Shown piece by piece: positions 12,953 to 33,604 of a DNA stretch of 64,000 nucleotides (position 1 is its first letter; every line of letters starts with the position of its first letter). The notes beneath the pieces are model-generated. The model worked only from the letters and a program-made list of their open reading frames with translations. It made no database searches and was not told the origin of the DNA. The stretch covers positions 598,431-662,430 of the forward strand of contig OY969472.1 in assembly GCA_963700155.1 (NCBI GenBank). Direction: 5' to 3'. A program made the translations under genes and the position numbers. This stretch comes from an uncultured bacterium (GTDB lineage: Bacteria; Patescibacteriota; Dojkabacteria; J137).

Positions 12953-15163
12953 TTATTCATATCTTAGCGCATCTAAAGCAGAGATCTTTGTAGCTCTAGT
13001 AGCTGGATATAATCCTGTCAAAACGCCTGTTATTCCAGAAATTAATAGAATTATAACTGCACTCGAAATAGGTAGATTTACAAGGTTCAGATATCCATAA
13101 CCTCTTGAAATTGAGATTAAGGAGATTATAAATGATAATAAATTTCCCGCAATAACACCAAATAGTATACCTACAATCCCTCCTAACAACCCCATTGTTA
13201 TAGATTCAGACAAGAACAAGTGTTTTACTTCTTCTGCTCTCATTCCGATAGCCTTCATTAATCCAACTTCTTTTGTCCTTTCTAAGAGTGATACAGTTAG
13301 TGTATTAAACATTCCTAATGCGGCAACAAATAATGCAACAAATCCTACTATGGCAAATACAACTCTAGCATTATCAAAAAAGCCCTGAATTTGTTGAACA
13401 GTATCTAAAATTGCAGTAGTTCTGAATCCAAGTACATTTAACTGTTGTCTCAAAGTATCAACATCAGTTTGATCACTAGTGACTAATCTTACTTGTGAGT
13501 AGTTCTTAATCCCAAGTGATTGTACGTCTTGGATTGGAGCATAAGCTTTTGGTGCGTCATTAGAAGATATTACTCCAACAATAGTATAATCAAAAGATTT
13601 TGGTTCAGATGTCTTATCAGTTTTTTGAGCACTATCAGTTAAAATGTATGAAATTTTTAATGTCTTATTAATCGCATTACCTGAGTTAAGACCTATAACG
13701 TCTAAGAATGACTGATTAACAACAATGCCTTCATTTCCAGAAATTGGATTATCTTCAAACAAATTCCCGGTAGTTATTTTTGATTCAATAGTATTTAAAT
13801 ATGCTGATTGTACGCCATAAACCACAACATCAGCATTAGAATCCTGATAATTAACATTCCCTGCGATACTTATTACAGGATATGTCTGTTCAACATGATC
13901 AAGTCCTTTTAAAGTACCAAGAGCATCTTCATTTATTATTACGCTTTCACCCAAAGACGGATAAACATCTATTTGTTTTAATTGTTCTAGTTCAGCAACT
14001 TGAGATATAACAAGATTTTCTATTCCAAAACCAATTGAAACTAAAAAGGCTGTGAATCCTATACCTAACGCAACTCCCCCTATTGTTATAAGTGCTCTAT
14101 TTCTTTTTGCAAAAAGATTTTTGAAAGAAAGTTCAAATATATCAATATAGCTGATACTTTGTATTTTTGATTTATCAAGAATATCAATAAATTTATCATA
14201 AATCCCAGTTATTAATTTATCTAATGGTTTAAATATAACTGAGATAGAGAATACTTTGTGCAAAATTCTGTAAGTTAAGGACACTATTACTAATATTGTT
14301 GAAAGTATAACAAGTCCAATTGTTGTGAAAATGTTTTTAAAAAAACCAGAATTTTGCTCTCTCTTTCGTTTTGGATTGCTAAGGTTAGAAAGATCGGCTT
14401 TATAAGGTACTGCTGTCCCATCATCAACTTTATTTTCAGTTATCAAAGACTCTTTTATTTCTTTAATGTTATCTTTAGTTATTACTGAATCTCGTACAAT
14501 CTTCCCATCAAAGATATATAGAAATCTTTTGGCGAAATCTAAATTATCAATATTATGAGTAACCATAATTACTGTTTTCCCCTCAATACTTAGTTTTTGA
14601 AGGTATTCGGACAGTTCTTTACCGCTTTTATAATCCAAGTTTCCAGTAGGTTCATCAGCAACAATTATTTGTGGATCTGTAATTAAAGCTCTTGCGAGGG
14701 AAACTTTCTGTTGTTGTCCTGAGGAAAGCTCGCTTGGCAAAAAAGTAGCCCATTCTGAAAGCTCGAATTGTTCAAGCATCTTTAAAGCTTTGGTATTTGC
14801 GTCAATCTTAGAGTAACCTCTTAAAACTAAGGGAAAAGCTACATTTTCTTGTACATTTAATGATTTTATCCAATAAGGTTGTTGATATATTATTCCCACA
14901 TTCTTTTTTCTGAAGTTAGCGAGTTCTTCACTATTTGCATTTGTTATATCAACCCCTGCAAAATTGATTGATCCTTTGGTGGCATCTTCTAATCCTAGCA
15001 GAACGTTAAGAAGTGTTGATTTACCACTTCCCGAAGGTCCAAATATCATTGCAAACTCACCTTGTGAGATTTCGACATTAACGTCTTTTAATACATCGAT
15101 GCTTTTAGGTTTTACATCATACCTTTTGAATATATTTTTTATCTTTATTATCGGATTATTCAT
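12953..15163 (-). CDS. ABC transporter, fused ATP-binding and FtsX-type permease (MacB-like topology)
   Basis: Walker A 'GPSGSGKST', signature 'LSSGQQQKVSLARAL', Walker B 'IVADEPTGNLD' and H-loop 'VTHN' in the first ~230 aa. A TM follows, then a ~300-aa extracytoplasmic domain, then three C-terminal TM helices (FtsX/MacB fold). Confidence 0.8.
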   Translation of the reverse strand: MNNPIIKIKNIFKRYDVKPKSIDVLKDVNVEISQGEFAMIFGPSGSGKSTLLNVLLGLEDATKGSINFAGVDITNANSEELANFRKKNVGIIYQQPYWIKSLNVQENVAFPLVLRGYSKIDANTKALKMLEQFELSEWATFLPSELSSGQQQKVSLARALITDPQIIVADEPTGNLDYKSGKELSEYLQKLSIEGKTVIMVTHNIDNLDFAKRFLYIFDGKIVRDSVITKDNIKEIKESLITENKVDDGTAVPYKADLSNLSNPKRKREQNSGFFKNIFTTIGLVILSTILVIVSLTYRILHKVFSISVIFKPLDKLITGIYDKFIDILDKSKIQSISYIDIFELSFKNLFAKRNRALITIGGVALGIGFTAFLVSIGFGIENLVISQVAELEQLKQIDVYPSLGESVIINEDALGTLKGLDHVEQTYPVISIAGNVNYQDSNADVVVYGVQSAYLNTIESKITTGNLFEDNPISGNEGIVVNQSFLDVIGLNSGNAINKTLKISYILTDSAQKTDKTSEPKSFDYTIVGVISSNDAPKAYAPIQDVQSLGIKNYSQVRLVTSDQTDVDTLRQQLNVLGFRTTAILDTVQQIQGFFDNARVVFAIVGFVALFVAALGMFNTLTVSLLERTKEVGLMKAIGMRAEEVKHLFLSESITMGLLGGIVGILFGVIAGNLLSFIISLISISRGYGYLNLVNLPISSAVIILLISGITGVLTGLYPATRATKISALDALRYE

Positions 15164-15213
15164 TATACTTATTAAACATTTAATATATGATTATGATTTT
15201 CAAGTTCATTTTA

Positions 15214-18200
15214 TTACAAAAAGCTAAAGATGTCTTGTAACCCTTTCAAAACAATATCAAGTGCACTCTCAGATTTCTGAGGTGCAATAGTTACAATATT
15301 ATTAGTTTGCGATTCATTCTTACTACTATCATCAGATACAGCTCTTAAGTGATATACACCGGATGGTTTAAGATTAGAAACAATTACAACATGTTTAAGA
15401 CCTAAAGTTCTATCAATCTGAGTACTTTGACTGTAATCACCAGAAGAACCTTCACCAAATTCTACTTGACTTGTAGCAAGTTCATCAGTGGTCCAAGAAA
15501 CAATAACTTGAGCAGTAGAGTCTTGAGAATCAGGATTAACAGCTTCAACTTTAATGTTAGAGATAGCAGGAGGTCTAGTATCAGTCGCAGTAGTAAATGT
15601 ATGAACATCAGAAGTAGCTTGATTACCAATAGAATCTGTACCTTTTACTACAAGTGAGTACTTAGTATCAGTCGAAAGATTTTCAATAGTTAACTTATGA
15701 TCGGTTTTAGGTTCAATATCGATGACATTTTTAATAAGATCTGGATTATCAGCAGGATAGAATGAAACAATTGATGATATCTCAGTATTAGAAGACCAAG
15801 AGACATCAACAGTAGGTTGGGCAACATTCTTAACTTCTTGAATTTGTATATTACTTACAGTTGGTCTTGGTAATGTAGTTAGGTCTAAAATGGTACCTTG
15901 ATACTCGAATCCTTCAACATCTGTTGGATTAATTTTAAAGTAATATTTAGTTCCGTCATCTAAATTACTTAAAAGAGCAGTGTAAGAACTTTCAATAAAT
16001 GCAGTGTCAATAGTTTTCAATCCTCCAAAATCAGTTGATTTTCCATAATATACTTTTACAGATTTAGCATTAGTAACTGTAAAATTGATTAATGCTGAAT
16101 CAATTCCAACATTAGATGCATTTGCATTCTTAACTGTTGGTGCAGGATCTGTGGAGAAAGTTTTCTCTTCACTGATACCTGTATTCCCATCTTCATCAGT
16201 CCATTTAGCTCTGTAGTAGTAAGTTGTTCCAGCCGACAGATTATCAAGAGTAACAGTATGAGCAGTAACTTGAGCAGAAACAGCACTTTCAGCTTCAAGA
16301 TAATCATTAGATGAAAGTCCTATTTGAATTTTAGAGTCAGATCTTCTGTCTGTTACCCATGAGATAACTGCTTTTCTTGTAGTAGTAGCATTAACAGTAG
16401 GACCGGAGATTAAATCAGCAGGACTAGTATATTTACCTGTAGGATATTTAGTAACAGTACTAGAAACAGCAGAGCAATTGTTTGCAGAGTCACATGCTTT
16501 TATGCAGTAATAGTAATCTTGTTGTGATAGTCCTGTATCAATATATGATGTTCCTAATACTGTACTGATTTTTGAGAAGTCTCCAAAACTGACACTACAA
16601 GAAGCACTGGTAGTAGTAGATCTATATACATCGTAATTAGAAACTCCTGCACCAACATTAGAAGGAGTGGTCCAAGTTAAAGCTAATTTCCAATCAGAAG
16701 TATCTTTATTAGAGATATCAGCAACATCAGGGTTCAAAGGAATACCAGGTGCTTGTCCGGAATAGGTAAATGTAATAGATGTATATGTACTGTAATTGAT
16801 ATTCCCAGCCTCATCTTTAGCAACTACATAGAAAGTATTAGTGTCAGGTTGATTAGCGAATGCGTCTGCTGATAAACTTGTTACACCTGCGCTAGTATAT
16901 GTACAAGTGTTTACGCTAGGTAAGGTATTAATTGTATAGCAGTATGTTAGGTTGCTAACACTACCAGTAAAAGTTCCTGGAGGATCCCAGTCAAAAGCAT
17001 AAGAATTAGTAGTATTATCACTTGGTGTAACACTTAAGTTTTGTGGTTCACTAGGTGCATTAGTGTTAATTTTTAGTACTCCTGAGATACTTGATGTAGA
17101 AATATTCCCAGCTAAGTCTAATGTTCTAAAGTAAATGATGTTGTTACCATCAGAAAGGTTAGGATAATCATAAGTAGGATCAGTAGTATAGGTGCCGTCA
17201 TTAACAAGTCGGTCAGTTAAATCTTGATTACCATTATGTAAATCTCCATACCATGTACCTCCACTTCCAATTCTGTATTGTAAACCTGCTAAACCGGCAC
17301 CAACATCAGTAGCTTCATTACCTCCAGTTGTTGGCCAAGTGATAGTGGCATCTTTAGTAGAGATAAAGTTAGATGGCATAGAGATAAAGTCAGGGTTCTC
17401 TGGAGGTGTATTATCAAATTTGAATGAAATTAAATCCTGGTAAAGATTAGAAGCACCACTCCAAATATTACCGGTAACATCAACAGCTTTGATAGAGAAG
17501 TAGTATTGTTTACCTGTTGTTAGAGTCAATCCAGAGATACTACTTAAGTCAACGTGATCCCCTGTAGCAATGTAATCACAATAACTTTCACTTACACCAT
17601 CATCAAGACCATGGAGGATACCTCCACTAGTAGCAGGGTTAACACTGCTAGAGTTACCAGGAGTAGCTTCGTCAAGTGAAATACAATATCCTAACAACCC
17701 ACTTCCACCAACATTGTCGTTACCTTCGGTCCAGTTAATTTGAGGTTTAGACTTGACCCAGTCACCGTCATTAACTCCTGAGATATTAATACTTGTGGCA
17801 TTTTGTGTTGGTAAGGTTGTATCATAAGTTAAGTCTAAAGATACATCTGAAAGAACAGGAGTATTCTGTCCACCAGAACTTAGGAATGATTTAAATGCAA
17901 AATATTTACTAGAAGGACTAAAGCTAGAGATATTAGTGTTAATATCAGAAGCAATATTGGAATTAGCACTTGAACTAGCGTTACTCCAAGCAGCACCATC
18001 CCAGTATTTCCAAGTATTATTTGAATTACAATTAGAAACAGTATCACCACATATTTGATAATATATCTCACTTCCTGCAGGTTTAGTAGAAGTAGTAGTA
18101 CAGTTACTACTACCATCTAAAGTACCTTCACAGAAGTGATCAATCGATTGTGGCCTAGATGTTAGATCTAAAGAGTTAGTAGAACTAACTGATGGTTTAT

Positions 18201-18440
18201 CAACAGGATAATTTTGATAAGTAAATGTATTACTTGATATTTTAGGTAAGTAACTAGAATTATCAGTTTCAAGAATAGTTTTGTATTGAAAATATTGATT
18301 ATTAGAAACGTTACTTAAAGCAAAAGTAGGTAAGTCAGTAGAAGTATTATTAGCATCAGAATAATATGTATTGGAAGTCCCATCAGGACCGATAAATGAC
18401 TCTCCAGAGCAAGCATTATCATCACATGATCTAACCTGGT
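15214..18440. repeat. ~3.2-kb near-identical direct repeat, copy 1 (3' two-thirds of paralogue A)
   Basis: Nucleotide stretches from 15214 to ~18440 are almost identical to 20217 to ~23445. The encoded proteins run from 'KYQVRSCDDNACSGESFIGPDG...' to the C-terminus with only scattered substitutions. Confidence 0.8.
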
Positions 18441-20196
18441 ATTTTACATTTTGGAGACCTCTTTTATAAATAGTATTAATTTCAGTTGGAGAAAGACTTT
18501 TATTGAAGATAGAGAATTCGTCCATAAATCCTTTAAATTTAGATGATGGACTGCCTGAGTATAGTGCTCCAATTTCCATTTTATTTTGTGTTATTGATCC
18601 AAAGGTGGTAGAAACTGTTGAAGCTGCAACACCATTTACATATGTAGTTAAATTATTCCCATTACGAACTCCTACTACATAATACCATTTTCCTGCTTCA
18701 ATAATATTGGAGTAAGTTGATCCTACTATATGACTAGCATCATCTCTAACTAAAAACGTTATGTCATTATTACCTGTAGCGAATTGAAATAATACGGCTG
18801 AACCGGCTGTAGTAGTTCGATAAGCACCGATCGTGTATGAAACAGACACTGAGTCTACATTTATCCAAGCTGATACAGAATAATTTGTTCCCAGAGTTGT
18901 TCCAGGGTAGGGATCATTAAGTTCAATATAGCTATTGCCATCAAAGTATTCTGAGTAACTACCTAATTTATAGACTAAATTAGAAAATTGGGATGAGCCT
19001 ACAATAGTACCATTTTTGCTATTGCCACTTGAATCATTTGCATTCCCGTCAAAGTGCCAAAGCCCCTGATTGTTCGACATATCAACATTATCTGTACTAT
19101 ATTGAGTTTCAATTCCTTTATTATCTGGCAAATTCTTCCCGTAAGGAGCATTTGGTAACCAATTAATATTTTGCCAAGTTGTCCCATCAGAAACAGATGT
19201 ATCAAAAACTTTTGAAGTATATTCCCCATACAGACCTGCACCTTTTTCATAATTTGTTTTAATTTCACTTGCAGACAAGGCAGTAGAGTATATCGTTGTA
19301 TCGTCTAGAGCTCCGACAAAATATCCATGCCCCCCAGAAGGATCAATAGAAATACTTTTCCAATTAAAATATCGTAAGTTACCAGATGAAGATCCATTCT
19401 TAATATACTCACCATTTAGATATAGTGATATTGTATTATTATTATTGACAACGGTAACAAAATTCCATCCAGAAAGAGTAGTGCTATAAACTAAATTATA
19501 AGGCATTAACCCAGATTTTTGCTCACATAATGTAATCCCATTAGTCCCAACATTGATTCCTAATCCGGTTCCACCTGTAACATAGTGGGGATAGAATATA
19601 GTTCTATTAGATGTTAAATTTGAAAAGCATTCAACCCCACTTCCACTTTGAGATCCAAGATGAGTAGTTGATTCAGGTTTAACCCATGTACTTATTGTAA
19701 ATGTTGTACTACTAATTTCCCCATCAGGAACATCTACATAACTAGTGTTGTCAAAATGTCCAGCTGTTCCTATCTGTCCTGTTGTAAATATTGCTCCATA
19801 AGATGTACCATTATAATTACCTAATTCATCATTCCAGTTATTCTCAAATCTCCACTGTGCAACAACCCCCGGATCGTTTGAAGGGGTAGAAGCTGGTGTA
19901 TTACTTAAAGTTAAATTACCAGAAGAATATTGAGTATTATTGTATGTACCTAAATCATATTTAGCTTGAGAATCATCAGTAATATCAGTTTGAACTTGTT
20001 TTAAAGAAGCTTCACCTCCAGTTACTTGAATCTTATTGGAATCAGATAAAGTATAGTCTGAAGGTGTAGAAAAATCCCAGGTGAAGCTGGTTGATGCAAA
20101 TAATTTAGTACCTATAAAAATTATAGGTATGCTAACCAGAACAATAATAATAAAGACTTCTTTTTTTTCAATTTTCTTAATTCTAAATTTTTTCAT
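15214..20196 (-). CDS. giant surface protein, paralogue A (1660 aa): signal anchor, LamG/ConA-like lectin modules, Cys-rich linkers, multiple Fn3/PKD-like domains
   Basis: N-terminus 'MKKFRIKKIEKKEVFIIIVLVSIPIIF' with one TM. The conserved module 'FASTSFTWDFSTPSDYTLSDSNKIQVTGGEASLKQVQT' follows. Two LamG-like modules are present (e.g. 'NYSVSAWINVDSV...YVVGVRNGNNLTTYVNG'). Repeated ~95-aa beta modules such as 'TSPADLISGPTVNATTTRKAVISWVTDRRSDSKIQIGL...TTYYYRAKWTDEDGNTG' follow. The C-terminus is 'ALDIVLKGLQDIFSFL'. Confidence 0.7.
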   Translation of the reverse strand: MKKFRIKKIEKKEVFIIIVLVSIPIIFIGTKLFASTSFTWDFSTPSDYTLSDSNKIQVTGGEASLKQVQTDITDDSQAKYDLGTYNNTQYSSGNLTLSNTPASTPSNDPGVVAQWRFENNWNDELGNYNGTSYGAIFTTGQIGTAGHFDNTSYVDVPDGEISSTTFTISTWVKPESTTHLGSQSGSGVECFSNLTSNRTIFYPHYVTGGTGLGINVGTNGITLCEQKSGLMPYNLVYSTTLSGWNFVTVVNNNNTISLYLNGEYIKNGSSSGNLRYFNWKSISIDPSGGHGYFVGALDDTTIYSTALSASEIKTNYEKGAGLYGEYTSKVFDTSVSDGTTWQNINWLPNAPYGKNLPDNKGIETQYSTDNVDMSNNQGLWHFDGNANDSSGNSKNGTIVGSSQFSNLVYKLGSYSEYFDGNSYIELNDPYPGTTLGTNYSVSAWINVDSVSVSYTIGAYRTTTAGSAVLFQFATGNNDITFLVRDDASHIVGSTYSNIIEAGKWYYVVGVRNGNNLTTYVNGVAASTVSTTFGSITQNKMEIGALYSGSPSSKFKGFMDEFSIFNKSLSPTEINTIYKRGLQNVKYQVRSCDDNACSGESFIGPDGTSNTYYSDANNTSTDLPTFALSNVSNNQYFQYKTILETDNSSYLPKISSNTFTYQNYPVDKPSVSSTNSLDLTSRPQSIDHFCEGTLDGSSNCTTTSTKPAGSEIYYQICGDTVSNCNSNNTWKYWDGAAWSNASSSANSNIASDINTNISSFSPSSKYFAFKSFLSSGGQNTPVLSDVSLDLTYDTTLPTQNATSINISGVNDGDWVKSKPQINWTEGNDNVGGSGLLGYCISLDEATPGNSSSVNPATSGGILHGLDDGVSESYCDYIATGDHVDLSSISGLTLTTGKQYYFSIKAVDVTGNIWSGASNLYQDLISFKFDNTPPENPDFISMPSNFISTKDATITWPTTGGNEATDVGAGLAGLQYRIGSGGTWYGDLHNGNQDLTDRLVNDGTYTTDPTYDYPNLSDGNNIIYFRTLDLAGNISTSSISGVLKINTNAPSEPQNLSVTPSDNTTNSYAFDWDPPGTFTGSVSNLTYCYTINTLPSVNTCTYTSAGVTSLSADAFANQPDTNTFYVVAKDEAGNINYSTYTSITFTYSGQAPGIPLNPDVADISNKDTSDWKLALTWTTPSNVGAGVSNYDVYRSTTTSASCSVSFGDFSKISTVLGTSYIDTGLSQQDYYYCIKACDSANNCSAVSSTVTKYPTGKYTSPADLISGPTVNATTTRKAVISWVTDRRSDSKIQIGLSSNDYLEAESAVSAQVTAHTVTLDNLSAGTTYYYRAKWTDEDGNTGISEEKTFSTDPAPTVKNANASNVGIDSALINFTVTNAKSVKVYYGKSTDFGGLKTIDTAFIESSYTALLSNLDDGTKYYFKINPTDVEGFEYQGTILDLTTLPRPTVSNIQIQEVKNVAQPTVDVSWSSNTEISSIVSFYPADNPDLIKNVIDIEPKTDHKLTIENLSTDTKYSLVVKGTDSIGNQATSDVHTFTTATDTRPPAISNIKVEAVNPDSQDSTAQVIVSWTTDELATSQVEFGEGSSGDYSQSTQIDRTLGLKHVVIVSNLKPSGVYHLRAVSDDSSKNESQTNNIVTIAPQKSESALDIVLKGLQDIFSFL

Positions 20197-20216
20197 TAAT
20201 TTCTACCCATACTTGA

Positions 20217-23200
20217 TTACAAAAAGCTAAAGATATCTTGTAAACCTTTCAATACAATATCGAGTGCACTCTCAGATTTCTGAGGAGCGATAGTTACAAT
20301 ATTATTAGTTTGCGATTCATTTTTACTACTATCATCAGATACAGCTCTTAAGTGATAAACACCAGATGGTTTAAGATTAGAAACAATAACAACATGTTTA
20401 AGACCTAAAGTTCTATCAACTTGAGTACTTTGACTGTAATCACCAGAAGAACCTTCACCAAATTCAACTTGACTTGTAGCAAGTTCATCAGTAGTCCAAG
20501 AAACAATAACTTGAGCAGTAGAATCTTGAGAATCAGGATTAACAGCTTCAACTTTAATGTTAGAGATAGCAGGAGGTCTAGTATCAGTAGCAGTAGTAAA
20601 TGTATGAACATCAGAAGTAGCTTGATTACCAATAGAATCTGTCCCTTTAACTACTAAGGAATATTTAGTATCTGCTAAGAGACTAGTAACTTCAAGTTTA
20701 TGCTCGGTTTTAGGTTCAATATCGATAACATTTTTAACAAGATCAGGCTGATCAACAGGATAGAATGAAACAATTGATGATATCTCAGTATTAGAAGACC
20801 AAGAGACATCAACAGTAGGTTGAGCTACATTCTTAACTTCTTGAATTTGTATATTACTTACAGTAGGTCTTGGTAATGTAGTTAAGTCTAAAATAGTCCC
20901 TTGATATTCGAATCCTTCAACATCTGTTGGATTAATTTTAAAGTAATATTTAGTGCCGTCATCTAAGTTAGTCAATAATGTAGTATATGAGCTTTCGATA
21001 AATGCAGTGTCAATTGTCTTTAATCCTCCAAAATCTGTTGATTTCCCATAATATACTTTTACAGATTTAGCATTAGTAACTGTAAAATTGATTAATGCTG
21101 AATCAATTCCAACATTAGATGCATTTGCATTCTTAACTGTTGGTGCAGGATCAGTTGAGAAAGTTTTCTCTTCACTAATACCTGTATTCCCATCTTCATC
21201 AGTCCATTTAGCTCTGTAGTAGTAAGTTGTTCCAGCAGATAAATTATCAAGAGTAACAGTATGAGCAGTAACTTGAGCAGAAACAGCACTTTCAGCTTCA
21301 AGATAATCATTAGATGCAAGTCCTATTTGAATTTTAGAGTCAGATCTTCTGTCTGTTACCCAAGAGATAACTGCTTTTCTTGTGGTAGTAGCATTAACAG
21401 TAGGACCGGAGATTAAATCAGCAGGACTGGTATATTTACCTGTAGGATATTTAGTAACAGTACTAGAAACAGCTGAGCAATTGTTAGCAGAGTCACATGC
21501 TTTGACACAATAGTAATAGTCTTGTTGGATAAGTCCAGTATCAATATATGAGGTACCTAATACTGTACTGATCTTGGAGAAGTCTCCAAAACTGGCACTA
21601 CAAGAAGCACTAGAAGTAGTAGATCTGTAAACATCATAACTAGAAACTCCAGCACCAACATTACTTGGAGTAGTCCAAGTTAAAGCTAATTTCCAATCAG
21701 AAGTATCTTTATTCGAAATATCAGCAACATCAGGATTCAATGGAATACCTGGTGCTTCTCCAGAATAGGTAAAAGTAATAGATGTATAGGTACTGTAATT
21801 AATATTTCCGGCTTCATCTTTAGCGACTACATAGAAAGTATTAGTATCAGGTTGATTAGCAAATGCATCTGCTGAAAGTGAGGTTACTCCTGCAGATAGT
21901 ATACGTGCAAGTAGTGCTACTAGGTAGAGTATTAATTGTATAACAGTATGTTAAGTTCCTAACACTACCGGTAAAAGTTCCAGGAGGATCCCAGTCAAAA
22001 GCATAAGAATTAGTAGTATTATCACTTGGTGTAACACTTAAGTTTTGTGGTTCACTAGGTGCATTAGTATTAATCTTTAAAACTCCACTAATACTTGATG
22101 TAGAAATATTCCCAGCTAAGTCTAATGTTCTAAAGTAAATGATGTTGTTACCATCAGAAAGGTTAGGATAATCATAAGTAGGATCAGTAGTATAGGTGCC
22201 GTCATTAACAAGTCGGTCAGTTAAATCTTGATTACCATTATGTAAATCTCCATACCATGTACCTCCACTGATCCAATTTTGTACTGCAATCCAGCTAAAC
22301 CAGCTCCAACATCAGTAGCTTCATTACCTCCGGTTGTTGGCCAAGTGATAGTAGCATCTTTAGTAGAGATAAAGTTAGATGGCATTGAGATAAAGTCAGG
22401 GTTCTCTGGAGGTGTATTATCAAATTTGAATGAAATTAAATCCTGGTAAAGATTAGAAGCACCACTCCAAATATTACCGGTAACATCAACAGCTTTGATA
22501 GAGAAGTAGTATTGTTTACCTGTTGTTAGAGTCAAACCAGAGATACTACTTAAGTCAACGTGATCACCAGTAGCAATGTAGTCACAATAACTTTCAGTAA
22601 CACCATCATCTAAACCATGGAGAATTCCACCACTAGTAGCAGGGTTAACACTGTTAGAGTTACCAGGAGTAGATTCATCAAGTGAAATACAATAACCTAA
22701 CAAACCACTTCCTCCAACATTATCATTACCTTCAGTCCAATTAATTTGAGGTTTAGACTTAATCCAATCACCATCATTAACTCCAGAGATATTAATGCTA
22801 GTAGCATTCTGTGTTGGTAAAGTTGTGTCGTATGTTAAGTCTAAAGATACATCTGTCAGAACAGGAGTATTCTGACCACTAGAACTTAAGAATGATTTAA
22901 ATGCAAAATATTTACTAGAAGGACTAAAGCTAGAGATATTAGTGTTAATATCAGAAGCAATATTAGAATTAGCACTTGAACTAGCATTACTCCAAGCAGC
23001 ACCATCCCAATACTTCCAGGTATTATTACTATCACAATTAGAGACAGTATCACCACAAATTTGATAATATATCTCACTTCCAGCAGGTTTAGTAGAAGTC
23101 GTAGTACAGTTACTACTACCATCTAAAGTACCTTCACAGAAGTGATCAATAGATTGTGGTCTTGATGTTAAATCTAAAGAGTTAGTAGAACTAACTGATG

Positions 23201-23445
23201 GTTTATCAACAGGATAATTTTGATAAGTAAAAGTATTACTTGAAATTTTAGGTAAGTAACTAGAATTATCAGTTTCAAGAATAGTTTTGTATTGAAAATA
23301 TTGATTATTAGAAACGTTACTTAAGGCGAAAGTTGGTAAATCAGTAGATGTATTATTAGCATCAGAGTAGTAAGTATTAGAGGTTCCATCAGGTCCGATG
23401 AAGGATTCACCTGAACAAGCATTGTCATCACAAGAACGTACCTGA
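20217..23445. repeat. ~3.2-kb near-identical direct repeat, copy 2 (3' two-thirds of paralogue B)
   Basis: See copy 1. Identity extends through the conserved C-terminus 'ALDIVLKGLQDIFSFL'. Confidence 0.8.
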
Positions 23446-25157
23446 TATTTTACATCATTTATTCCACGTTTGTATAAGGAGCCCACTTCAGAATTAGTTA
23501 AGACATGGTTAAAAATTGCTAATTCATCCATTCCACCAGTCCAGTACTGTGAATTACCTCCTCCTAAAGACATAGTTTGTATTGCCGGAGCAGTCAGTGC
23601 GGTAGTGTTAGTTCCTAGCTTGGTACCATTTTCATAGATGTTATAAACATCATTATTAAAATCCCAATCGATAGCAACATGAATCCAGGTATTTGCGGCA
23701 AATGCAATAGGGCCAGTTATTGCTCTATAGTTCAAATTAATATAAGAATAAAATCCTGAAGCAACACTATAAGATAATTGTATACCAGAAGTTGTTGTTC
23801 CCCACTGAAAAATAGGGTTATATGTTGTTGGTGGAGAGCTTGAGTTAAAACTTGGTTTCAACCATACACTTAATGTTCCTGTATTAACATTAAATCCTGT
23901 ATTTCCTAAAGTTATATAATCACCACTCCCATCAAAATAAGCACCATTACTACCAAATTTTGCAGTCGATGATGGTGTTGAATTCCCGGATGGACTTGCT
24001 GTATTATTTTGTCCACTAGAATCATTCCAATTTCCATTAAAATGCCAAAGTCCAATATTTCCACTCATATCTACATTATCTTCAGAATATTGTGTTTCAG
24101 CAGCTGCATTATTTGGAAGTTCTTTCCCATAGGGAGAATTTGGTACCCAATTAACATTTTGCCAAGTAACCCCATCTGTTATCGAAGTATTGAAAACTTT
24201 TGAAGAATACTCACCATAATGTCCAACATTTTTAAGGTAATTTTCCTTAATTTGTGTATCTGTTAATACAGTATTATATACAATTACTTCGTCTGCTGAT
24301 CCTGCTGTCCCATGTGCACCTGAAAGACTTCCTATTGCAAAAGGTGCGTTATTTGTTACTCCATTACTTATTACATCAGTATCTTCGAGGTTACCATCAA
24401 AATATAATTTCTGTGTATTTGTTGCCGCATTAAATGTACATATAACATAATGCCAATTCCCGTCAGTGATTGTAGATGTTGATGTTGAATATGCATCTGG
24501 GGCATAACAACTAACCTTATTTGCTGTAGGATAATTTGTTGTAATGAAAGAACCATTTGGACTACCAGCTAAGTGCTTTGAAATAGGGATACCTTGAGTT
24601 GTTATCGTGGTTTTTATCCAGCCACCATATGATCTATCATAATCTCCAAACTCAATTTGTGAATATTCCGGGATTGTAACGTAGTTTGTTCCAGAGAAGG
24701 AAAGTGCATTTCCTACTTTACCTGTTGTCCATGTAGGTGAACCAACAAGTGTCCCGTTATGCCCCAATCCGCTAGAATCACTTGCAGTGGTTCCTGACCC
24801 ATCGTCTAGTTTCCAAAACCCTACTAAGCCACTATCAGGCGCAGTTATATGCTGAGATGTATTTCCTAATGTTAAATTACCAGAAGAATAAAGTGTGTTT
24901 GAATATGTACCTAAATCAAATTCAGATTGAGAGTTATCAGTGATATTAGTTTGAACTTGTTTTAAAGAAGCTTCACCTCCAGTAACTTGAATCTTATTAC
25001 TGTCCGATAAAGTGTAATCAGATGGAGTAGAGAAATCCCAAGTGAAGCTAGTGGATGCAAAAAGTTTAGCAGTAATAAAAATTATTGGAATACTTATTAA
25101 AATTACTATGATTAATATTTCTTTTTTTTGAATTTTTCTAGATTTAAATCTTTTCAT
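20217..25157 (-). pseudogene. giant surface protein, paralogue B; reading frame broken by two single-nucleotide insertions (near 22275 and 21905), splitting it into 22221..25157, a middle piece, and 20217..21740
   Basis: Piece 22221..25157 (978 aa) has the same N-terminal module as A but different LamG cassettes. Piece 20217..21740 (507 aa) is ~97% identical to the C-terminus of A. In between, B has 'ggatcagtggagg' where A has 'ggaagtggagg', and 'gcagatagtatac' where A has 'gcgctagtatat'. Each is a 1-nt insertion that shifts the frame, and a TAA follows in the shifted frame. Confidence 0.6.
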
Positions 25158-25169
25158 TATATATTTTAA

Positions 25170-28100
25170 TTACAAAAAGCTGAAAATATCTTGCAAACCT
25201 CTTAAGACAATATCTAATGCATTCTCGGATCTCTGAGGAGTAATAGTAACAATATTATTGCTTAAGGTTTCGTTTTTGCTACCATCTTCTGAAACTGCTT
25301 CTAAGTGATATACACTTGATGGTTTCAGGTTTGAGATAATGACTACATGCTTTAAGCTCAAACTTCTATCAATTTGAGTCCCTTGAGCGAAGGAACCTCC
25401 GGTTCCTTCGCCATAAAGAACTTGACTTGTTGCTAGCTCATCTGTAGTCCAAGACACTACAATTTGAGCAGTAGAATCTTGAGAATCAGGATTCACAGCT
25501 TCAATTTTTATATTAGAAATTTCTGGTGGTCTTGTATCTGTTGCTGTAGTAAAAGTATGAACTTCTGAAGTCGCTTCATTGCCGATAGCATCTGTACCTT
25601 TAACAACAAGTGAGTATTTAGTGTCGGCATTTAAAGTTGCAACCTCAAGCTTGTGATCAGTTTTCAAATCAAGATCAATAACATTTTTTACAAGGTCAGG
25701 ATTATCAGCTGGATAGAATGAAACAATAGATGATATATCTGTATTTGATGACCAGGTTACATCAATTGTAGGTTGAGCAACATTCTTAACTTCTTGAATT
25801 TGTATATTACTTACAGTTGGTCTAGGAAGAGTAGTGAAATCCAGAACAGTTCCTTGATATTCTGTACCTTCTGTGTCGGTTGGATTAATTTTGAAATAAT
25901 ATTTCACACCATCAGTTAACTCTGTTAATACAGCAGTATAAGAACTTTCAATAAATGCAGTATCTAGTTCCTGTACTGCTCCAAATCCTGTAGTTTTACC
26001 ATAATATATTTTTACTAAGTTAGCATTATTACTTGTAAATTTAATTAAAGCTGAATCAATTCCAACGTTTGTAACTTTAACATTTGTAATAACAGGAGGT
26101 GGATCGGTAGTGAATGATTTTTCTCCACTTGTGCCAGTATTTCCATCTTCATCAGTCCACTTGACTATATAGTAATATGTAGTACCAGCCTTAAGATTAT
26201 TGAGTGTTACTGTATGTGCAGTGACCTGAGCGGAAATACCGACTTCTTCTTCAAAGTAATCACCAGAGGATAAACCATATTGAATTTTAGAGTCGGATCT
26301 TCTATCTGTTACCCACGAGATAACTCCCTTTGTAGTAGTTTTTGCATTTAATGAAGGGCCTGAGATCAGATCGGCAGGACTAGTATATTTCCCTGTAGGA
26401 TATTTAGTAACTGTACTGGATACTGCAGAACAGTTGTTAGCAGAGTCACATGCCTTCACACAATAGTAATAGTCCTGTTGGCTAAGTCCTGAATCAACAT
26501 AAGATGTTCCTAATACTGTACTAACTTTATTAAAGTCACCAAAATCAGAACTACAAGAAGCACTAGCAGTTGTAGATCTATATACATCATAATTAGAAAC
26601 TCCAGCTCCAACATTACTTGGGGTAGACCAAGTTACAGCTAATTTCCATTCTGAAGTATCCTTATTGGAGATATCTGCAACATCGGGATTTAAAGGAATC
26701 CCTGGAGCTTCACCTGAATAAGTAAAGGTAATTGATATATTGGTACTATAATTAATATTCCCAGCTTCGTCTTTAGCAACAACATAGAAAGTATTGGTGT
26801 CAGGCTGGTTAGCAAATGCATCGGCTGATAAACTTGTTACACCCGCACTAGTATATGTACAAGTAGTTGAGCTTGGCAAGGTGTTAACAGTATAACAATA
26901 TGTTATCGCTGAAACACTTCCTGTGTAAGTTGCCGGAGGATCCCAATCAAATGCGTATGAGTTGGCGGTGTTATCAGAAGGTGTTACACTTAAGTTTTGT
27001 GGTTCACTAGGAGCAGTTGTATTGACTTTTAATAAACCATTTACCGTTGAACTGGAAACATTTCCTGCAAGGTCCAATGTTCTGAAATATATAATATTGT
27101 TTCCATCAGATAGGTTAGGGTAATCATAAGTGGGGTCAGTAGTATATGTACCATCATTAACAAGAAGATCCATTAAATCTTCACTCCCAGTATGTAAATC
27201 TCCATACCATGTACCTCCAGAACCAATCTTATATTGTAATCCATCTAAACCAGCACCAACATCGTTAGCAGCATTACTATCACCAACAGGCCAAGTAATA
27301 GTTGCGTCTTTAGTAGAGATAAAGTTAGACGGCATAGAGATAAATGTAGGATTAGTAGGAGGGGTATTGTCATATCTAAATGATATTAAATCTTGATAAT
27401 CTCCTGATGATCCACTCCAAATATTACCGACGACATCAACAGCTTTAATAGAGAAGTAGTATTGTTTACCTGTTGTTAAAGTAAGTCCTGGAATACTACT
27501 AAGGTCAACATGATCTCCTGTAGCAATAAAGTCACAATAAGTGTCTGTTACTCCATCATCAAGACCATGAAGAATGCCAGCACTAGTAGCAGGGTTAATA
27601 CTACTGGAGTTATCAGGTTCAGCTTCATCTAAGGCAATGCAATATCCAAGGATTCCACTTCCATTAACATTATCATCACCTTCAGTCCAGTTGATTGTTG
27701 GTTTAGATTTGACCCAGTCACCATCATTTACATCTGAAATATTTATACTGGTGGCATTCTGTATAGGTGCAGTTGTATCATAAGTTACATCAAGTGACAC
27801 ATCAGAGAGTACTGGTGTATTTTGACCACCGGAGCTTAAGAAAGATTTAAATGAAAAGAACTTACTAGAAGGACGAAAGATAGAAATATTAGTATTAATT
27901 GTACTTGCAGTATTAGAGTTAGAACTTGAGCTTGCATTGCTCCAAGCAGCACCATCCCAATACTTCCAAGTATTATTAGAATTACAATTAGAAACAGTAT
28001 CGCTACATACTTGATAATATAGTTCGGTATTTGTAGGCTTAGTAGAAGTAGTAGTACAGTTACTACTTCCATCTAAAGTACCTTCACAGAAATGATCGAT

Positions 28101-29591
28101 AGATTGAGGTCTGTATGTTAAATCCATAGAAGTAGTAGGATTAACTGTTGGTTTATCAACAGGATAATTCTGATAAGTAAATGTATTACTAGAAATTTTT
28201 GGTAAATAACTTGCATTACCACTTTCTAGAGTAGCTTTATATTGAAAGTATTGATTACGGGTTAAAGATGATATATCGAAAGTGGCAGGTGAATTTGTCG
28301 TGTTATGGATTTCATCATAGTAACTACTTGAAGTTCCATCAGGACCAATAAAACTTTCGCCAGAACATGCATTATCATCGCATGATCTAATCTGGTATTT
28401 TACATTTTGAATTCCACGTTTATAAATATTAAGAATTTCAGTGTCCGATAAAATTCTGTTCCAAACAGCCACATCTTCAATTTGACCCTTGAAGTTGTTT
28501 AAGTAAGCATGAGAATATTGATTGTATACAGTACCTATAAGAAAACTAGAATAATATGCATTTAAAGTCTCAGTTCTTGAATTCTCTAGTTGTCCGTTTA
28601 CATATATATATCCATATCCTGTTGTACCATTACGGACACCAGTTATTAAGTACCAAACACCTGGTGTTAATGTGGTAGTTGACACAACTGAAGATCCATT
28701 ACTGCAGCCTGAAGGAAGTATGTCCATCCCAGCTTTACCAGTACTTCCTATGTTTATACCATATCCATACCAACAACTTATTGAGTCTGCTGCTTCCTTG
28801 CCTGCTATTGCCATAGTAGTCCCAATTTGTGTAATTTTTACCCATGCAGAAATAGTAAAGGTACTTATTCCTAATGACCCTCCATCACTTACTGTTCCAT
28901 AGTCACCGTTGCCATCTAGGTCTAATACCTTAGTTGGCCTATCTGAGTTTACAAATGCAGCATTCCCGCTGAGAGTTACCGAATGATTGTATCCGCTTGA
29001 ATCACTTGTATTATTCATATGCCATAAGCCAAGATTCCCGGTCATATCGATATTACCAGTTGAGTATCCTGATTCAGTTGCATGATTATTAGGCAATTCT
29101 TTTCCATAAGGTAACTCTGCACTCCAATTAAAGTTTTGCCACGCTACGCCATCTATGGCTGATGTGTCATATATTTTTGAGGTATAACTTCCTGATAGTG
29201 ACAAACTATCCAAGGTTAAATGCCCAGAAGAGTATTGAGTATTATTATATGTTCCTAAATCGAATTCAGATTGTGAATCATCAGTTGTATTTGTCTGTAT
29301 TTGTTGTAAAGATACATTTCCACCTGTGATTTGCATCTTGTTGCTGTCAGATAATGTGTAATCCGAAGGAGTAGAAAAATTCCATGAAAAACTAGTAGAG
29401 GCAAATAATTTTATATAAATTACAGGAATAATTAAGATAGCTATAAAAATAACAGTCAAAACGACATATGCTTTCCTGACCTTGTTTAAAGGATTTTTTT
29501 TGCCTAAATTTGTATGTAACATCTTCTTTAACATAATATATAGGTTTCCCCTATAAATCAACATAGATAATAAGGATAAATGAAAAATCAA
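25170..29591 (-). CDS. giant surface protein, paralogue C (1473 aa as listed; the true start is probably the internal Met near 29531)
   Basis: Same architecture as A and B but ~75-80% identical. It has the N-terminal 'LFASTSFSWNFSTPSDYTLSDSNKMQITGG' module, a LamG-like module, the 'KYQIRSCDDNACSGESFIGPDG' Cys linker, Fn3-like repeats and the C-terminus 'ALDIVLRGLQDIFSFL'. Confidence 0.7.
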   Translation of the reverse strand: MIFHLSLLSMLIYRGNLYIMLKKMLHTNLGKKNPLNKVRKAYVVLTVIFIAILIIPVIYIKLFASTSFSWNFSTPSDYTLSDSNKMQITGGNVSLQQIQTNTTDDSQSEFDLGTYNNTQYSSGHLTLDSLSLSGSYTSKIYDTSAIDGVAWQNFNWSAELPYGKELPNNHATESGYSTGNIDMTGNLGLWHMNNTSDSSGYNHSVTLSGNAAFVNSDRPTKVLDLDGNGDYGTVSDGGSLGISTFTISAWVKITQIGTTMAIAGKEAADSISCWYGYGINIGSTGKAGMDILPSGCSNGSSVVSTTTLTPGVWYLITGVRNGTTGYGYIYVNGQLENSRTETLNAYYSSFLIGTVYNQYSHAYLNNFKGQIEDVAVWNRILSDTEILNIYKRGIQNVKYQIRSCDDNACSGESFIGPDGTSSSYYDEIHNTTNSPATFDISSLTRNQYFQYKATLESGNASYLPKISSNTFTYQNYPVDKPTVNPTTSMDLTYRPQSIDHFCEGTLDGSSNCTTTSTKPTNTELYYQVCSDTVSNCNSNNTWKYWDGAAWSNASSSSNSNTASTINTNISIFRPSSKFFSFKSFLSSGGQNTPVLSDVSLDVTYDTTAPIQNATSINISDVNDGDWVKSKPTINWTEGDDNVNGSGILGYCIALDEAEPDNSSSINPATSAGILHGLDDGVTDTYCDFIATGDHVDLSSIPGLTLTTGKQYYFSIKAVDVVGNIWSGSSGDYQDLISFRYDNTPPTNPTFISMPSNFISTKDATITWPVGDSNAANDVGAGLDGLQYKIGSGGTWYGDLHTGSEDLMDLLVNDGTYTTDPTYDYPNLSDGNNIIYFRTLDLAGNVSSSTVNGLLKVNTTAPSEPQNLSVTPSDNTANSYAFDWDPPATYTGSVSAITYCYTVNTLPSSTTCTYTSAGVTSLSADAFANQPDTNTFYVVAKDEAGNINYSTNISITFTYSGEAPGIPLNPDVADISNKDTSEWKLAVTWSTPSNVGAGVSNYDVYRSTTASASCSSDFGDFNKVSTVLGTSYVDSGLSQQDYYYCVKACDSANNCSAVSSTVTKYPTGKYTSPADLISGPSLNAKTTTKGVISWVTDRRSDSKIQYGLSSGDYFEEEVGISAQVTAHTVTLNNLKAGTTYYYIVKWTDEDGNTGTSGEKSFTTDPPPVITNVKVTNVGIDSALIKFTSNNANLVKIYYGKTTGFGAVQELDTAFIESSYTAVLTELTDGVKYYFKINPTDTEGTEYQGTVLDFTTLPRPTVSNIQIQEVKNVAQPTIDVTWSSNTDISSIVSFYPADNPDLVKNVIDLDLKTDHKLEVATLNADTKYSLVVKGTDAIGNEATSEVHTFTTATDTRPPEISNIKIEAVNPDSQDSTAQIVVSWTTDELATSQVLYGEGTGGSFAQGTQIDRSLSLKHVVIISNLKPSSVYHLEAVSEDGSKNETLSNNIVTITPQRSENALDIVLRGLQDIFSFL

Positions 29592-29688
29592 ACCTTTTTC
29601 TAATCTGGGAAATTATTATTATTTTATGGATTTCTGAAAGTGTCTTTTCCTTAACAGGGAGGCTTTATAAAGTTTATATAATTTTTCT

Positions 29689-29735
29689 TGACACTTTTGG
29701 TATACCATGTATACCATATAAGTATACTAATTTAT
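29689..29735 (+). promoter_or_regulatory. candidate lexA promoter (TTGACA -35) overlapping a triple GTATAC / TGGTATACCA palindromic array (putative LexA operator) in the divergent intergenic region shared with the giant-protein operon
   Basis: Sequence 'cTTGACActtttGGTATACCatGTATACcatataaGTATACtaa' lies 12-58 nt upstream of the lexA ATG. TGGTATACCA is a perfect 10-bp palindrome. Confidence 0.4.
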
Positions 29736-29747
29736 TAACTTAGGTAT

Positions 29748-30386
29748 ATGTCAAAATTTTTAACTTCAAAACAAAGAATAGTTTTAGATGCTCTTTCATC
29801 TTATCTTGAAGAAAATGGCGAGGCGCCAACCTTGGCTGAACTTCAAGAAATCCTTGGAATAAAAACTAAGAGAGGCGTTGCAAAACACCTAGAAGCTTTA
29901 GAAAGAAAAGGCTTTATTTATCGAAGTGGGAAATCTAGAGGAATTATGTTAGAAAATAGCCTTAATTCGGAAATGTATGATGTCCCAATTTTAGGGTATG
30001 CAAATGCAGGTCAGCCTTTAGTTTTTGCCGAAGAAGATATAGTTGGATCAATTAAAGTTGACAAAGATATTATTAAAAACAAAAAAAATATTTTTGCTCT
30101 TGTTGTAAAAGGTGATTCCATGAATATGAGAACTATTAATAAAGTCCCAATTGTAGATAAGAATTTTATCTTAGTTCAAAAAGAGAGCTCTTATGATAAT
30201 GGAGATGTTGTACTTGCAGTAATAGATAATGCAGCAACAGTAAAAACATTTAAAAGAAGTGATAATTCAGTAATACTTTATCCTGAATCAAATAATCCTG
30301 TTCATACTCCAATTTATTTAAGAGATGATGTTCATGGATTTATTAATGGGAAAGTAATTGCTGTTTTAGAAAATCCATCAAATTAA
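29748..30386 (+). CDS. lexA: LexA-like SOS repressor (S24 peptidase family)
   Basis: N-terminal winged HTH 'PTLAELQEILGIKTKRGVAKHLEALERKGFIYR', a linker, and the C-terminal S24 domain with 'VVKGDSMNM' (catalytic Ser) and a downstream Lys in 'ATVKTFKR'. Confidence 0.85.
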   Translation: MSKFLTSKQRIVLDALSSYLEENGEAPTLAELQEILGIKTKRGVAKHLEALERKGFIYRSGKSRGIMLENSLNSEMYDVPILGYANAGQPLVFAEEDIVGSIKVDKDIIKNKKNIFALVVKGDSMNMRTINKVPIVDKNFILVQKESSYDNGDVVLAVIDNAATVKTFKRSDNSVILYPESNNPVHTPIYLRDDVHGFINGKVIAVLENPSN

Positions 30387-30403
30387 ATATTATTTTAAAT
30401 ATA

Positions 30404-30838: not shown

Positions 30839-30955
30839 CTATTTTTATTTATTATATTAAAAAAATGAAAGCAGGAATGGATTATGCAAAATATGTAGAA
30901 GCTAGAAAACAGAGCTTTTTTCAGAAACTAAATCAATTTATGGGGAAGAAGTTTG

Positions 30956-31333: not shown

Positions 31334-31361
31334 ATTTATATTCTATACAAAAGCATAGAAT

Positions 31362-32839: not shown

Positions 32840-32906
32840 TTGTAAGAAGTTTGTAATATGTATTTTTTAAAATTATTAAGCATTCTATCACTAATTTCAA
32901 TAAGAT

Positions 32907-33602: not shown

Positions 33603-33604
33603 CT

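Follow-up and report, generated by a model that had tools for sequence, protein, structure and literature searches.

Introduction

To our knowledge, little is known beyond type IV pili about how ultra-small Patescibacteria recognize and hold their hosts. Here we analyze 64,000 nucleotides (nt) of DNA from an uncultured Dojkabacteria bacterium, a small-genome Patescibacterium (GenBank assembly GCA_963700155.1, positions 598,431 to 662,430 of the 1,140,724-bp contig OY969472.1). This whole stretch is called the window, and coordinates refer to it unless stated otherwise. It carries three giant paralogous genes in tandem, designated A, B and C, followed by the gene of a MacB-type ATP-binding cassette (ABC) transporter. 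On balance we lean towards reading the giants as stalk-and-head surface adhesins serviced by this ABC partner, with several binding specificities on one chassis and one transporter.

The Gram-positive stalk-and-head adhesins of the MSCRAMM (microbial surface components recognizing adhesive matrix molecules) and SasG-Aap type, which are anchored through LPXTG, have a Sec signal, a distal variable and often lectin-like region, a long C-terminal Ig/Fn3-like rod and paralogues with conserved stalks, and their short C-terminal element is linked to a dedicated envelope machine. The giants resemble them in all these respects, in the last as read from the genes. They differ in ending in a 16-residue amphipathic helix and in having a MacB-type ABC gene as neighbor: the C-termini of A, B and C carry neither LPXTG nor a hydrophobic-plus-basic sorting tail, and no sortase gene is a neighbor. 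Sequence kinship between the two groups extends only to generic Fn3 and LamG domains. The giants also differ from type 1 secretion (RTX/LapA-like) adhesins, as they have a Sec-type N-terminus and no RTX repeats (Pfam), their ABC protein is not of the HlyB type, and there is no membrane fusion protein (MFP).

In MacB, LolCDE and FtsEX, ATP hydrolysis drives a conformational change at the outer face of the membrane and does not move a substrate across it. Known MacB-type pumps act with extracytoplasmic partners (MacAB-TolC, DevBCA). The partner of the giants has the ABC_tran, MacB_PCD and FtsX domains (type VII) of FtsEX-EnvC/PcsB/CwlO, LolCDE and MacAB-TolC, and, as in the pairs of FtsEX with hydrolase activators and of LolCDE with lipoproteins, it is genetically coupled to a predicted extracytoplasmic protein. 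Unlike the clients of FtsEX and LolCDE, that protein is a beta-rod of 1,000-4,000 amino acids (aa) with a lectin head and has no coiled coil, hydrolase domain or lipobox.

Giant proteins reported from Absconditicoccaceae (PMC13059738) and Nanohaloarchaeota (PMC10266531) are similar in organism type, domain vocabulary and a speculative role in host recognition; those reports give domain content only. Large Fn3/ConA proteins of Patescibacteria have been described, in general terms only, as probably surface-exposed and possibly in contact with hosts (PMC13059738). Among open-access papers we found no description of the giant family, its tail or its MacB/FtsX-type partner. Tandem lectin-headed surface proteins are familiar in kind, and what is new is the Patescibacteria-wide MacB-type coupling and the universal C-terminal helix.

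Layout of the array

All long open reading frames (ORFs) at 12,953-29,591 lie on the minus strand, which confirms the three co-directional paralogues that an original prediction, made from the sequence alone, had placed at 15214-29591. The genes had been put 13-20 nt apart; the B-A gap is indeed 20 nt (20197-20216), and the smaller C-B gap (25158-25169) measures 12 nt. At the DNA level, 300-nt blocks repeat at a spacing of ~5.0 kb with 74-96% identity, far above chance. The main features are as follows.

12953 to 15163, minus strand: gene of a fused MacB-type ABC transporter, 736 aa, 50 nt downstream of gene A
15214 to 20196, minus strand: gene A, 1660 aa, intact ORF with two Laminin_G_3 matches (131.7 bits) and fn3/Pur_ac_phosph_N (Pfam)
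20217 to 25157, minus strand: gene B, 1645 aa once 3 nt are removed, from its ORFs and the alignment with A and C
25170 to 29534, minus strand: gene C, 1454 aa from the likely ATG start at 29534, with a signal/transmembrane segment, N-module, linker, one LamG domain (Pfam) and a 1078-aa rod
29535 to 29747, no strand: the sole sizeable upstream intergenic region, common to the array and the divergent lexA

The maximal ORF of gene C (25170-29591) extends further, to a TTG at 29591. The ATG is the likelier start; its product equals database protein P0001 (1454 aa). Genes C, B, A and the ABC gene, in that order, probably form a four-gene unit transcribed as one operon, with 29535-29747 as its presumed promoter region. 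A terminator scan gave no terminator-like sites within the array, and a promoter scan found fewer promoter-like sites than in shuffled sequence.

Conserved ends and variable heads

The N-terminal signal-anchor and the module 'FASTSF(T/S)W(D/N)FSTPSDYTLSDSNK', both predicted to be shared, are present in the translations of all three genes. Each protein begins with a K-rich n-region and one hydrophobic segment, after which this module follows; the N-module contains TWDFSTPSDY in A, B and C. At the other end, the shared C-terminal region, predicted at ~1000 aa with an invariant end, measures exactly 1078 aa and closes with ALDIVL(K/R)GLQDIFSFL-COOH in all three. Protein identity over this rod is 97% between A and B and 81% between either of them and C, and DNA identity is 92% for A-B (84-98% per 150-nt window) and ~78% for C against either.

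Residues ~95-580 had been proposed to form one variable central cassette. Their variability was borne out, and the placement was not: segment identities and Pfam matches indicate that the variable part lies N-proximally, where a conserved linker separates two distinct LamG domains. LamG1 is 32-33% identical between A and B and is absent from C, which has a single LamG domain, so that the two-domain head holds for A and B only. Identity in LamG2 is 33-34% for A-B, 32% for A-C and 25-26% for B-C, and the linker is 71% identical in A-B and 56-57% in A-C. The parts and their coordinates are given below.

20095 to 20196, minus strand: export signal of A, residues 1-34, a K-rich n-region and helix 11-34, then 'LFA|STSF' with inferred cleavage
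19888 to 20094, minus strand: conserved N-module of A, residues 35-103, 'STSFTWDFSTPSDYTLSDSNK...', with 74-84% identity among A, B and C
19246 to 19887, minus strand: LamG1 of A, residues 104-317, modeled with a predicted local distance difference test (pLDDT) score of ~80-90
19042 to 19245, minus strand: conserved linker between the LamG domains of A, residues 318-385, with an A-B synonymous divergence (dS) of 0.95
18451 to 19041, minus strand: LamG2 of A, residues 386-582, the most often replaced head domain of the clade
15217 to 18450, minus strand: rod of A, residues 583-1660, AlphaFold mean pLDDT 84.2
20220 to 23456 and 25173 to 28406, minus strand: rod equivalents of B (contains the frameshifts) and C
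15217 to 15264, minus strand: C-terminal amphipathic helix ALDIVLKGLQDIFSFL of A, with counterparts at 20220-20267 in B and 25173-25220 in C
24234 to 24848, minus strand: LamG1 of B, residues 104-308, sharing 32-33% identity with its counterpart in A and 19-26% with all relatives
23457 to 24029, minus strand: LamG2 of B, residues 377-567, from Pfam and alignment
28407 to 29009, minus strand: single LamG of C, residues 176-376, whose identity with the LamG2 domains of A and B is 25-32%

Pfam hidden Markov models found the LamG/Fn3 architecture that had been proposed. Laminin_G_3 (PF13385, cutoff 27.6 bits) matched A with 131.7 bits and B with 112.4 bits, in two stretches each, and C with 75.3 bits in one stretch at residues 207-367. 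A and B do carry different LamG modules, with an A-B identity of only ~32-34%. Repeats of fn3 and Pur_ac_phosph_N occupy the last ~450 aa (in A, 63.6 bits for Pur_ac_phosph_N and 42.8 for fn3); together with the bead-like all-beta model described below they support the Fn3-like nature of the C-terminal region. The idea of a conserved scaffold with a variable head also holds, with scaffolds at 81-97% and LamG domains at 25-33% identity in the window, and it is general across the family. The heads show no GC anomaly; the GC content of the window is ~31%.

Structure models

The rod was modeled with AlphaFold2 and a 63-sequence alignment. The model (mean pLDDT 84.2) comprises about ten Ig/Fn3-like beta-sandwich domains in line and a short terminal helix, the only helices being at model residues 138-144, 167-176 and 1064-1074, and we estimate the length of the rod at a few tens of nm. 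The tail is amphipathic (hydrophobic moment 0.56, mean hydrophobicity 0.45). Three Cys pairs in the rod are nearly invariant across the family, which fits an extracytoplasmic location of the giants.

Foldseek searches with the rod returned only generic Ig/Fn3 rods (titin, MyBP-C, the ROS1 ectodomain, contactin, mastigoneme and the GhpA base), and sequence searches of the PDB with the giants gave only generic Fn3 and LamG matches. GhpA, the grappling-hook fiber of Aureispira that serves cell-cell contact in ixotrophy (PDB 9fly), ranked fourth and was the top bacterial surface fiber (E 7e-18). Like the giants it is a giant string of Ig-like domains; the likeness is of a generic bead-on-string kind (TM-score 0.16-0.19, 13% identity), and GhpA comes from another kind of organism and has another secretion route and tip.

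The head model has a mean pLDDT of 66 and consists of the N-terminal helix 11-34 and two fairly confident jelly-rolls (residues 110-320 mostly 80-90, residues 375-580 mostly 65-90), with a poorly defined N-module and linker. Its Foldseek matches were laminin LG4-5 and neurexin LNS (E ~1e-11), the arabinan-binding domain 4 of AbnA (TM-score 0.76) and the Hc part with which clostridial neurotoxins bind their receptors, all of them ligand-binding modules. The modeled head thus resembles receptor- or glycan-binding LamG pairs. The structure models called for in the original prediction therefore gave a LamG pair in the head and an Ig/Fn3-like rod.

A family across Patescibacteria

Relatives are encoded in 285 genomic stretches among 185,579 species-representative genomes. 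Seventy-nine loci were fetched from these stretches, and the linkage counts given below rest on 82 assessable loci. The 79 loci are labeled Saccharibacteria, Microgenomates, WWE3, Doudnabacteria, Dojkabacteria or 'Patescibacteria group', with a few metagenome-assembled genomes (MAGs) labeled Gammaproteobacteria. An exhaustive single-sequence search with the rod matched no fewer than 1,298 clusters, formed at 50% identity (E<=1e-30). For the top 150 of them the alignment covers rod residues ~150-1078 and nearly always runs up to the C-terminus of the relative, in proteins of ~470 to 4,400 aa. From these alignments we would delimit the family by a ~930-aa C-terminal rod homologous to A residues ~730-1660, which A, B and C all have. 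Members are called 'hypothetical', 'LamG-like jellyroll' or 'fibronectin type III domain-containing' in their sources, and NCBIfam holds no model for the giants.

The C-terminal motif (D/E)(S/N)(A/V)L.(I/L)(I/V)(L/F)..L..(I/V)F(G/S)F, with 0-8 further residues after it, closes 97 of the 103 members that are complete at the 3' end, and the misses are broken-gene fragments or one slight variant. Among 1,868 other ORFs it occurs in six, all of them transmembrane segments. N-termini across the family have a basic n-region, one hydrophobic segment and an AxA-like site, then TWDFS...DY or WTQ(S/T)DWSGG. Many relatives (such as P0006-P0009 and L043-L076) have in addition an n-region of 60-110 aa with Y..WH....H...H, which the window proteins do not have; it could be an extended signal peptide or a retained cytoplasmic anchor in contact with the ABC ATPase.

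The heads of 53 relatives are mostly LamG domains (31 Laminin_G_3, 6 Laminin_G_2), followed by DUF2341 (n = 9) and F5/8-type-C (n = 4), with BclA_C/TNF-like (n = 2), FGE-sulfatase-like (n = 2) and FG-GAP (n = 1) heads being rarer.

Seven loci with family members and an ABC partner come from MAGs labeled Gammaproteobacteria or Pseudomonadales (L011, L014, L015, L042, L058, L064 and L081), one of them on a 1.57-Mb single contig. Their architecture and their 44-52% identity to the window rod suggest mislabeled Patescibacteria bins. In L003, two genes with an Lcl_C domain, the C-terminal domain of the Legionella collagen-like adhesin, lie within the array between the giants and the ABC transporter (14343-16080 of that locus), which suggests that other adhesin-type genes can join the giant-ABC module. 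A heliorhodopsin gene, at 7391-8158 of L001 from an 844-kb JGI relative, lies ~2 kb upstream of the single-copy giant there.

The MacB-type partner

Pfam assigned ABC_tran (residues 25-173, 113.9 bits), MacB_PCD (358-576, 65.2 bits) and FtsX (605-728, 58.9 bits) to the window transporter, all above their cutoffs. In 77 of the 82 assessable loci the genes immediately downstream of the giant encode an ABC ATPase and a MacB_PCD/FtsX permease, and in two of the five exceptions the transporter lies directly upstream. The gap between giant and ABC gene has a median of 1 nt and is at most 20 nt, or an overlap, in 67 loci; the ABC parts form one fused protein in 18 loci and separate ones in 59. This family-wide tie, like the break in gene B described below, is absent from the original prediction.

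The partner is set apart from MacB, LolD and FtsE systems by scores far below the NCBIfam equivalog cutoffs. Its best match is MacB PRK10535 with 263.6 against a cutoff of 966, and LolD (197.8 vs 307.75) and FtsE (187.1 vs 264.85) fall short as well. Nor is there a MacA-like adaptor gene: across more than 80 loci no further gene family is conserved near the giants, MacA-like adaptors and MFPs included. Where a genome has two complete units, the two permeases share only 43% identity with each other, against 66-70% with their respective counterparts in another genome, which indicates that giant and transporter are inherited as cognate pairs.

This near-constant linkage of cognate pairs, and the fact that known MacB-type pumps have extracytoplasmic partners, would also suit a system in which the transporter is the core and exports a lipid, glycolipid, peptide or toxin, the rod being an adaptor or conduit that replaces MacA/TolC in a one-membrane cell. 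We think this quite improbable, as the all-beta rod has no alpha-hairpin or barrel-forming features of an adaptor. Moreover, three lectin heads share one pump in the window and heads vary freely, which suits a binding device better. Stalks kept 81-97% identical are what would be expected if all three giants must fit one shared transporter.

Evolution of the array

Most loci carry a single giant (n = 74), six carry two, and three are found only in this window and in L003. The closest relative of the source organism is 'Patescibacteria group bacterium BroJett037', whose locus is syntenic: it is flanked by AI-2E at one end and by LexA/YceG/RuvX at the other, and it holds a single giant with a different head and its ABC gene in inverted orientation. 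Comparison with a related genome, as had been proposed, thus shows that the locus varies among relatives, and it indicates that the triplication is lineage-specific. At strain level, a metagenome scan gave only distant relatives with at most 43% identity, and a look-up of the exact P0001 sequence gave no contig. The three copies are best explained as tandem duplicates of a module that most relatives carry only once.

By sequence comparison, turnover of the heads is a family trait. P0075 and P0076 are near-orthologues with rods 82% identical and LamG2 domains only 34% identical, and in other tandem arrays rods are 68-82% and heads 21-41% identical. Between A and the proteins P0002 and P0003, LamG1 identity is 49-52%. 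This is near the rod level (59-60%) and marks it as an old type, apparently orthologous in these proteins. For the head of B, no donor above 39% identity, over one LamG, was found among 5.8 billion proteins. A recent horizontal import of the B head from a sampled source is unsupported, as there is neither such a donor nor a GC anomaly.

As an alternative to host adhesion, the lectin-tipped rods could serve envelope functions or nutrient capture. Their ligands could be polysaccharides of the environment, the wall or S-layer of the cell itself, or other cells of a biofilm, and head diversity would then reflect substrate range. The head modules are of carbohydrate-binding types (LamG, F5/8-type-C, the AbnA domain 4 match), and the family occurs in many Patescibacteria lineages of unknown lifestyle with no host named by the data. 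Heads that turn over much faster than the stalk in near-orthologues, and that have no close relative in so large a protein collection, are more typical of interfaces under diversifying pressure than of ones that bind widespread polymers; neither point is decisive. We regard an envelope or nutrient-capture role as unlikely, though a reading to be kept in view beside the adhesin one.

The rods evolve differently from their neighbors in the same genes. A-B dS is 0.335 in the rod and 0.92-0.95 in the N-module and linker, the latter being similar to the A-C dS of 1.1 in the rod. Counted per 49-codon window, A-B synonymous differences vary from 0/48 to 23/48 (chi2 87.7, 21 degrees of freedom, p 4e-10), whereas those between A and C are homogeneous across the rod windows (p 0.08). 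Local rod patches occur in which B equals C and not A, or A equals C and not B. The contrast in dS, the heterogeneous A-B differences and these patches point to repeated patchy gene conversion, which keeps the rods alike while the heads stay apart.

Helicobacter pylori babA/babB and the Mycoplasma MgPa repeats likewise combine divergent binding regions with near-identical flanks, patchy conversion and occasional out-of-frame copies. The copies described here differ in being full-length and adjacent in one operon, in having the conversion in the stalk, and in the lack of partial silent donors.

The break in gene B

Gene B had been predicted as a third giant gene. It is a paralogue of the other two, but its frame is interrupted: under translation table 11 the given sequence yields two ORFs, at 22221-25157 (978 aa) and 20217-21740 (507 aa). 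The public gene calls of the source contig split it likewise (P0004, 978 aa; P0171, 507 aa). Two insertions account for the split.

21896 to 22271, minus strand: out-of-frame stretch of B, bounded by nucleotides that A and C lack, two at 22270-22271 and one near 21896
Site 1 (22270-22271, +2): B GGA TCA GT GGA GGT; A GGA AGT GGA GGT; C GGT TCT GGA GGT
Site 2 (~21896, +1): B ACT A TCT GCA; A ACT AGC GCA; C ACT AGT GCG

The insertions are 375 nt apart and total 3 nt; the 126 codons between them contain 6 stops, after which the frame is restored. An alternative genetic code behind the stops was rejected, since both insertions stand out cleanly in the alignment of the three genes and the frame returns after 126 codons. 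Both insertions lie at Ser codons at which the paralogues differ, AGY versus TCN, and each resembles a merge of both variants. The longest run of A-B identity, 179 nt at 22091-22269, starts exactly at the +2 site, and longest runs in shuffled controls had a mean of 74 nt and a maximum of 165 nt (1000 trials). As this run begins at the first insertion and exceeds the controls, the frameshifts mark the edges of an A-derived tract. Over the whole rod, the ratio of nonsynonymous to synonymous divergence (dN/dS) between A and B is 0.066 (dS 0.335, dN 0.022), which indicates that B was a functional gene under strong purifying selection until very recently, and it may still be one.

We consider a recent gene-conversion scar and an assembly or polishing chimera about equally probable as the source of the frameshifts. 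Assembly error could in principle reach further, to the copy number or the near-identity of A and B, since assemblers struggle with 3.2-kb repeats that are 92% identical. The merge-like form of both indels (TC-A-GT, A-TCT), which are insertions at AGY/TCN switches that sum to exactly 3 nt, and the abutment of the first on the longest A-identical tract, would fit such an error. Yet the distinct heads of the copies and their distinct substitution patterns throughout mean that the three genes are real. Ten other large ORFs have no split domains in a Pfam scan, so the assembly is not generally indel-rich, and independent tandem arrays occur in other genomes. An artefact behind the array as described is very improbable, and the doubt is serious only for the B frameshifts.

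Tandem paralogues with the same flanks around divergent heads, clear gene conversion between copies and one copy out of frame are also what programmed antigenic or phase variation might leave, the frameshifted B being an off-state or a silent donor. The original prediction had likened the locus to variation systems with cassette swapping, and this part was not upheld. Repeats of at least 40 nt in the 64-kb window comprise only the three full-length paralogues, with no silent cassettes, partial or otherwise, no invertible segments or inverted repeats (none flank the promoter) and no repeats of the diversity-generating retroelement type, which argues for concerted evolution and not programmed switching. 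No recombinase, invertase or reverse transcriptase was found beside the array by Pfam among the nine nearest flanking ORFs within ~9 kb and 20 further ORFs, smaller ORFs being outside the scan. There is no homopolymer or short-repeat tract at the frameshifts, and the conversion tracts fall within the stalks and outside the heads. The three copies share one apparent operon, and the dN/dS of B is what an expressed gene would be expected to show. Programmed variation therefore seems scarcely credible here, and the mosaic is better explained by patchy, stalk-homogenizing gene conversion than by active swapping.

Genomic surroundings

The neighboring genes are ordinary chromosomal ones (tRNA-Asn, tmRNA, YidC, L25, GroEL, ClpC, RuvX, YceG). 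The intergenic region between gene C and lexA contains a perfect inverted repeat, GTATAC-N3-GTATAC, at 29700-29714, ~35 nt upstream of lexA and ~165 nt upstream of gene C. The expected number of chance matches is 0.04 per window. The same repeat lies at the same distance upstream of lexA in BroJett037 (L007, 16353-16367), where the giant gene does not adjoin it. From its position, it is probably the LexA operator of the lineage, and SOS control of the giant array is conceivable.

Between the ABC gene and the AI-2E transporter lie two further minus-strand genes, at 6757-8748 and 8752-11796. The first product has 663 aa, with Peptidase_C39_2 and three Ig-like domains of the Big_5 type; the adjoining one has 1014 aa, with an N-terminal acyltransferase_3/HGSNAT domain. 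In the 23-kb BroJett037 locus L007, the AI-2E gene directly adjoins the giant gene, and BLASTP (E<=1e-5) matched neither protein to any ORF of that locus. The two appear to be lineage-specific envelope genes inserted at this point.

Farther away, two ORFs match PF18895, a type IV secretion system (T4SS) pilin family (48909-49271 and 51709-52488). Near them are large ORFs without Pfam match (52567-54141, 57456-59852 and 61018-63462) and a SpoIID-like protein (54138-55913). By their content, the ORFs from 48909 to ~63.5 kb may form a T4SS-like envelope cluster, of a kind that is reportedly essential in Saccharibacteria.

GC skew of the plus strand is about zero or negative at 1-30 kb and then +0.12 to +0.26 from 30 kb to the end of the window. 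The change (~30,000-34,000) coincides with a switch of gene strand from mostly minus to plus and may be a replication-related strand switch; no dnaA was seen among the window ORFs checked.

Proposed function

From the anatomy of the proteins and their linkage we infer a surface location, an orientation, a binding function and a role for the transporter. The giants would be exported by Sec as surface fibrils, with the conserved rod and C-terminal helix as the cell-proximal end and the variable heads at the distal end, where they would bind ligands, most plausibly glycans or proteins of the host surface. The MacB-type transporter would engage the rod/tail end after Sec export and anchor, load or release the fibril in an ATP-dependent manner by 'mechanotransmission' outside the membrane. 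A role after export fits a transporter of the MacB family, which acts on the outer face of the membrane. Heads would have diverged or been replaced after duplication while repeated gene conversion kept the rods alike.

A more specific version of this proposal, in which the ABC mechanotransducer grips the C-terminal helix and uses ATP to load, tension, retract or release the lectin-tipped fibril, is speculative, and we hold it to be doubtful as it stands.

Several points weigh against the adhesin reading. LamG domains also have non-adhesive roles, and MacB-type transporters have many unrelated ones. The terminal helix (model residues 1064-1074, equal to A residues 1646-1656) was modeled with a pLDDT of only 50-69. 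An N-terminal anchor that is retained, as the long n-regions of relatives could suggest, would put the heads beside the membrane. One of the three copies, B, is broken in the sequence as given. Finally, in transposon sequencing of the Saccharibacterium Southlakia epibionticum (PMC10633639), SEML1_0053/54 is the one MacB-type pair whose loss gives a growth defect, and it has no giant neighbor. The 'fibronectin III' protein of Southlakia, SEML1_0890, has only 195 aa, and that data set gives no direct data on the giant family.

Significance

The bounds of the family can now be tested, as a conserved rod, a universal C-terminal helix and a variable lectin head replace what were earlier only vague 'large Fn3/ConA proteins'. 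The tie to a dedicated MacB-type transporter in most assessed loci suggests an ATP-dependent step on a surface fibril. Duplication and replacement of heads, with gene conversion keeping the stalks compatible with a shared partner, would offer a route to new specificities. If the fibrils bind generic polysaccharides, they would still represent a new conserved envelope module, of more modest ecological interest. If the heads set host range, the five LamG domains of the window (two in A, two in B and one in C) are candidates for predicting host range from metagenomes. Should the fibril indeed be gripped in an ATP-driven manner, it would constitute an energized attachment or detachment device for epibiotic life, widespread in Patescibacteria, in which tandem arrays would give several host specificities to a single motor.

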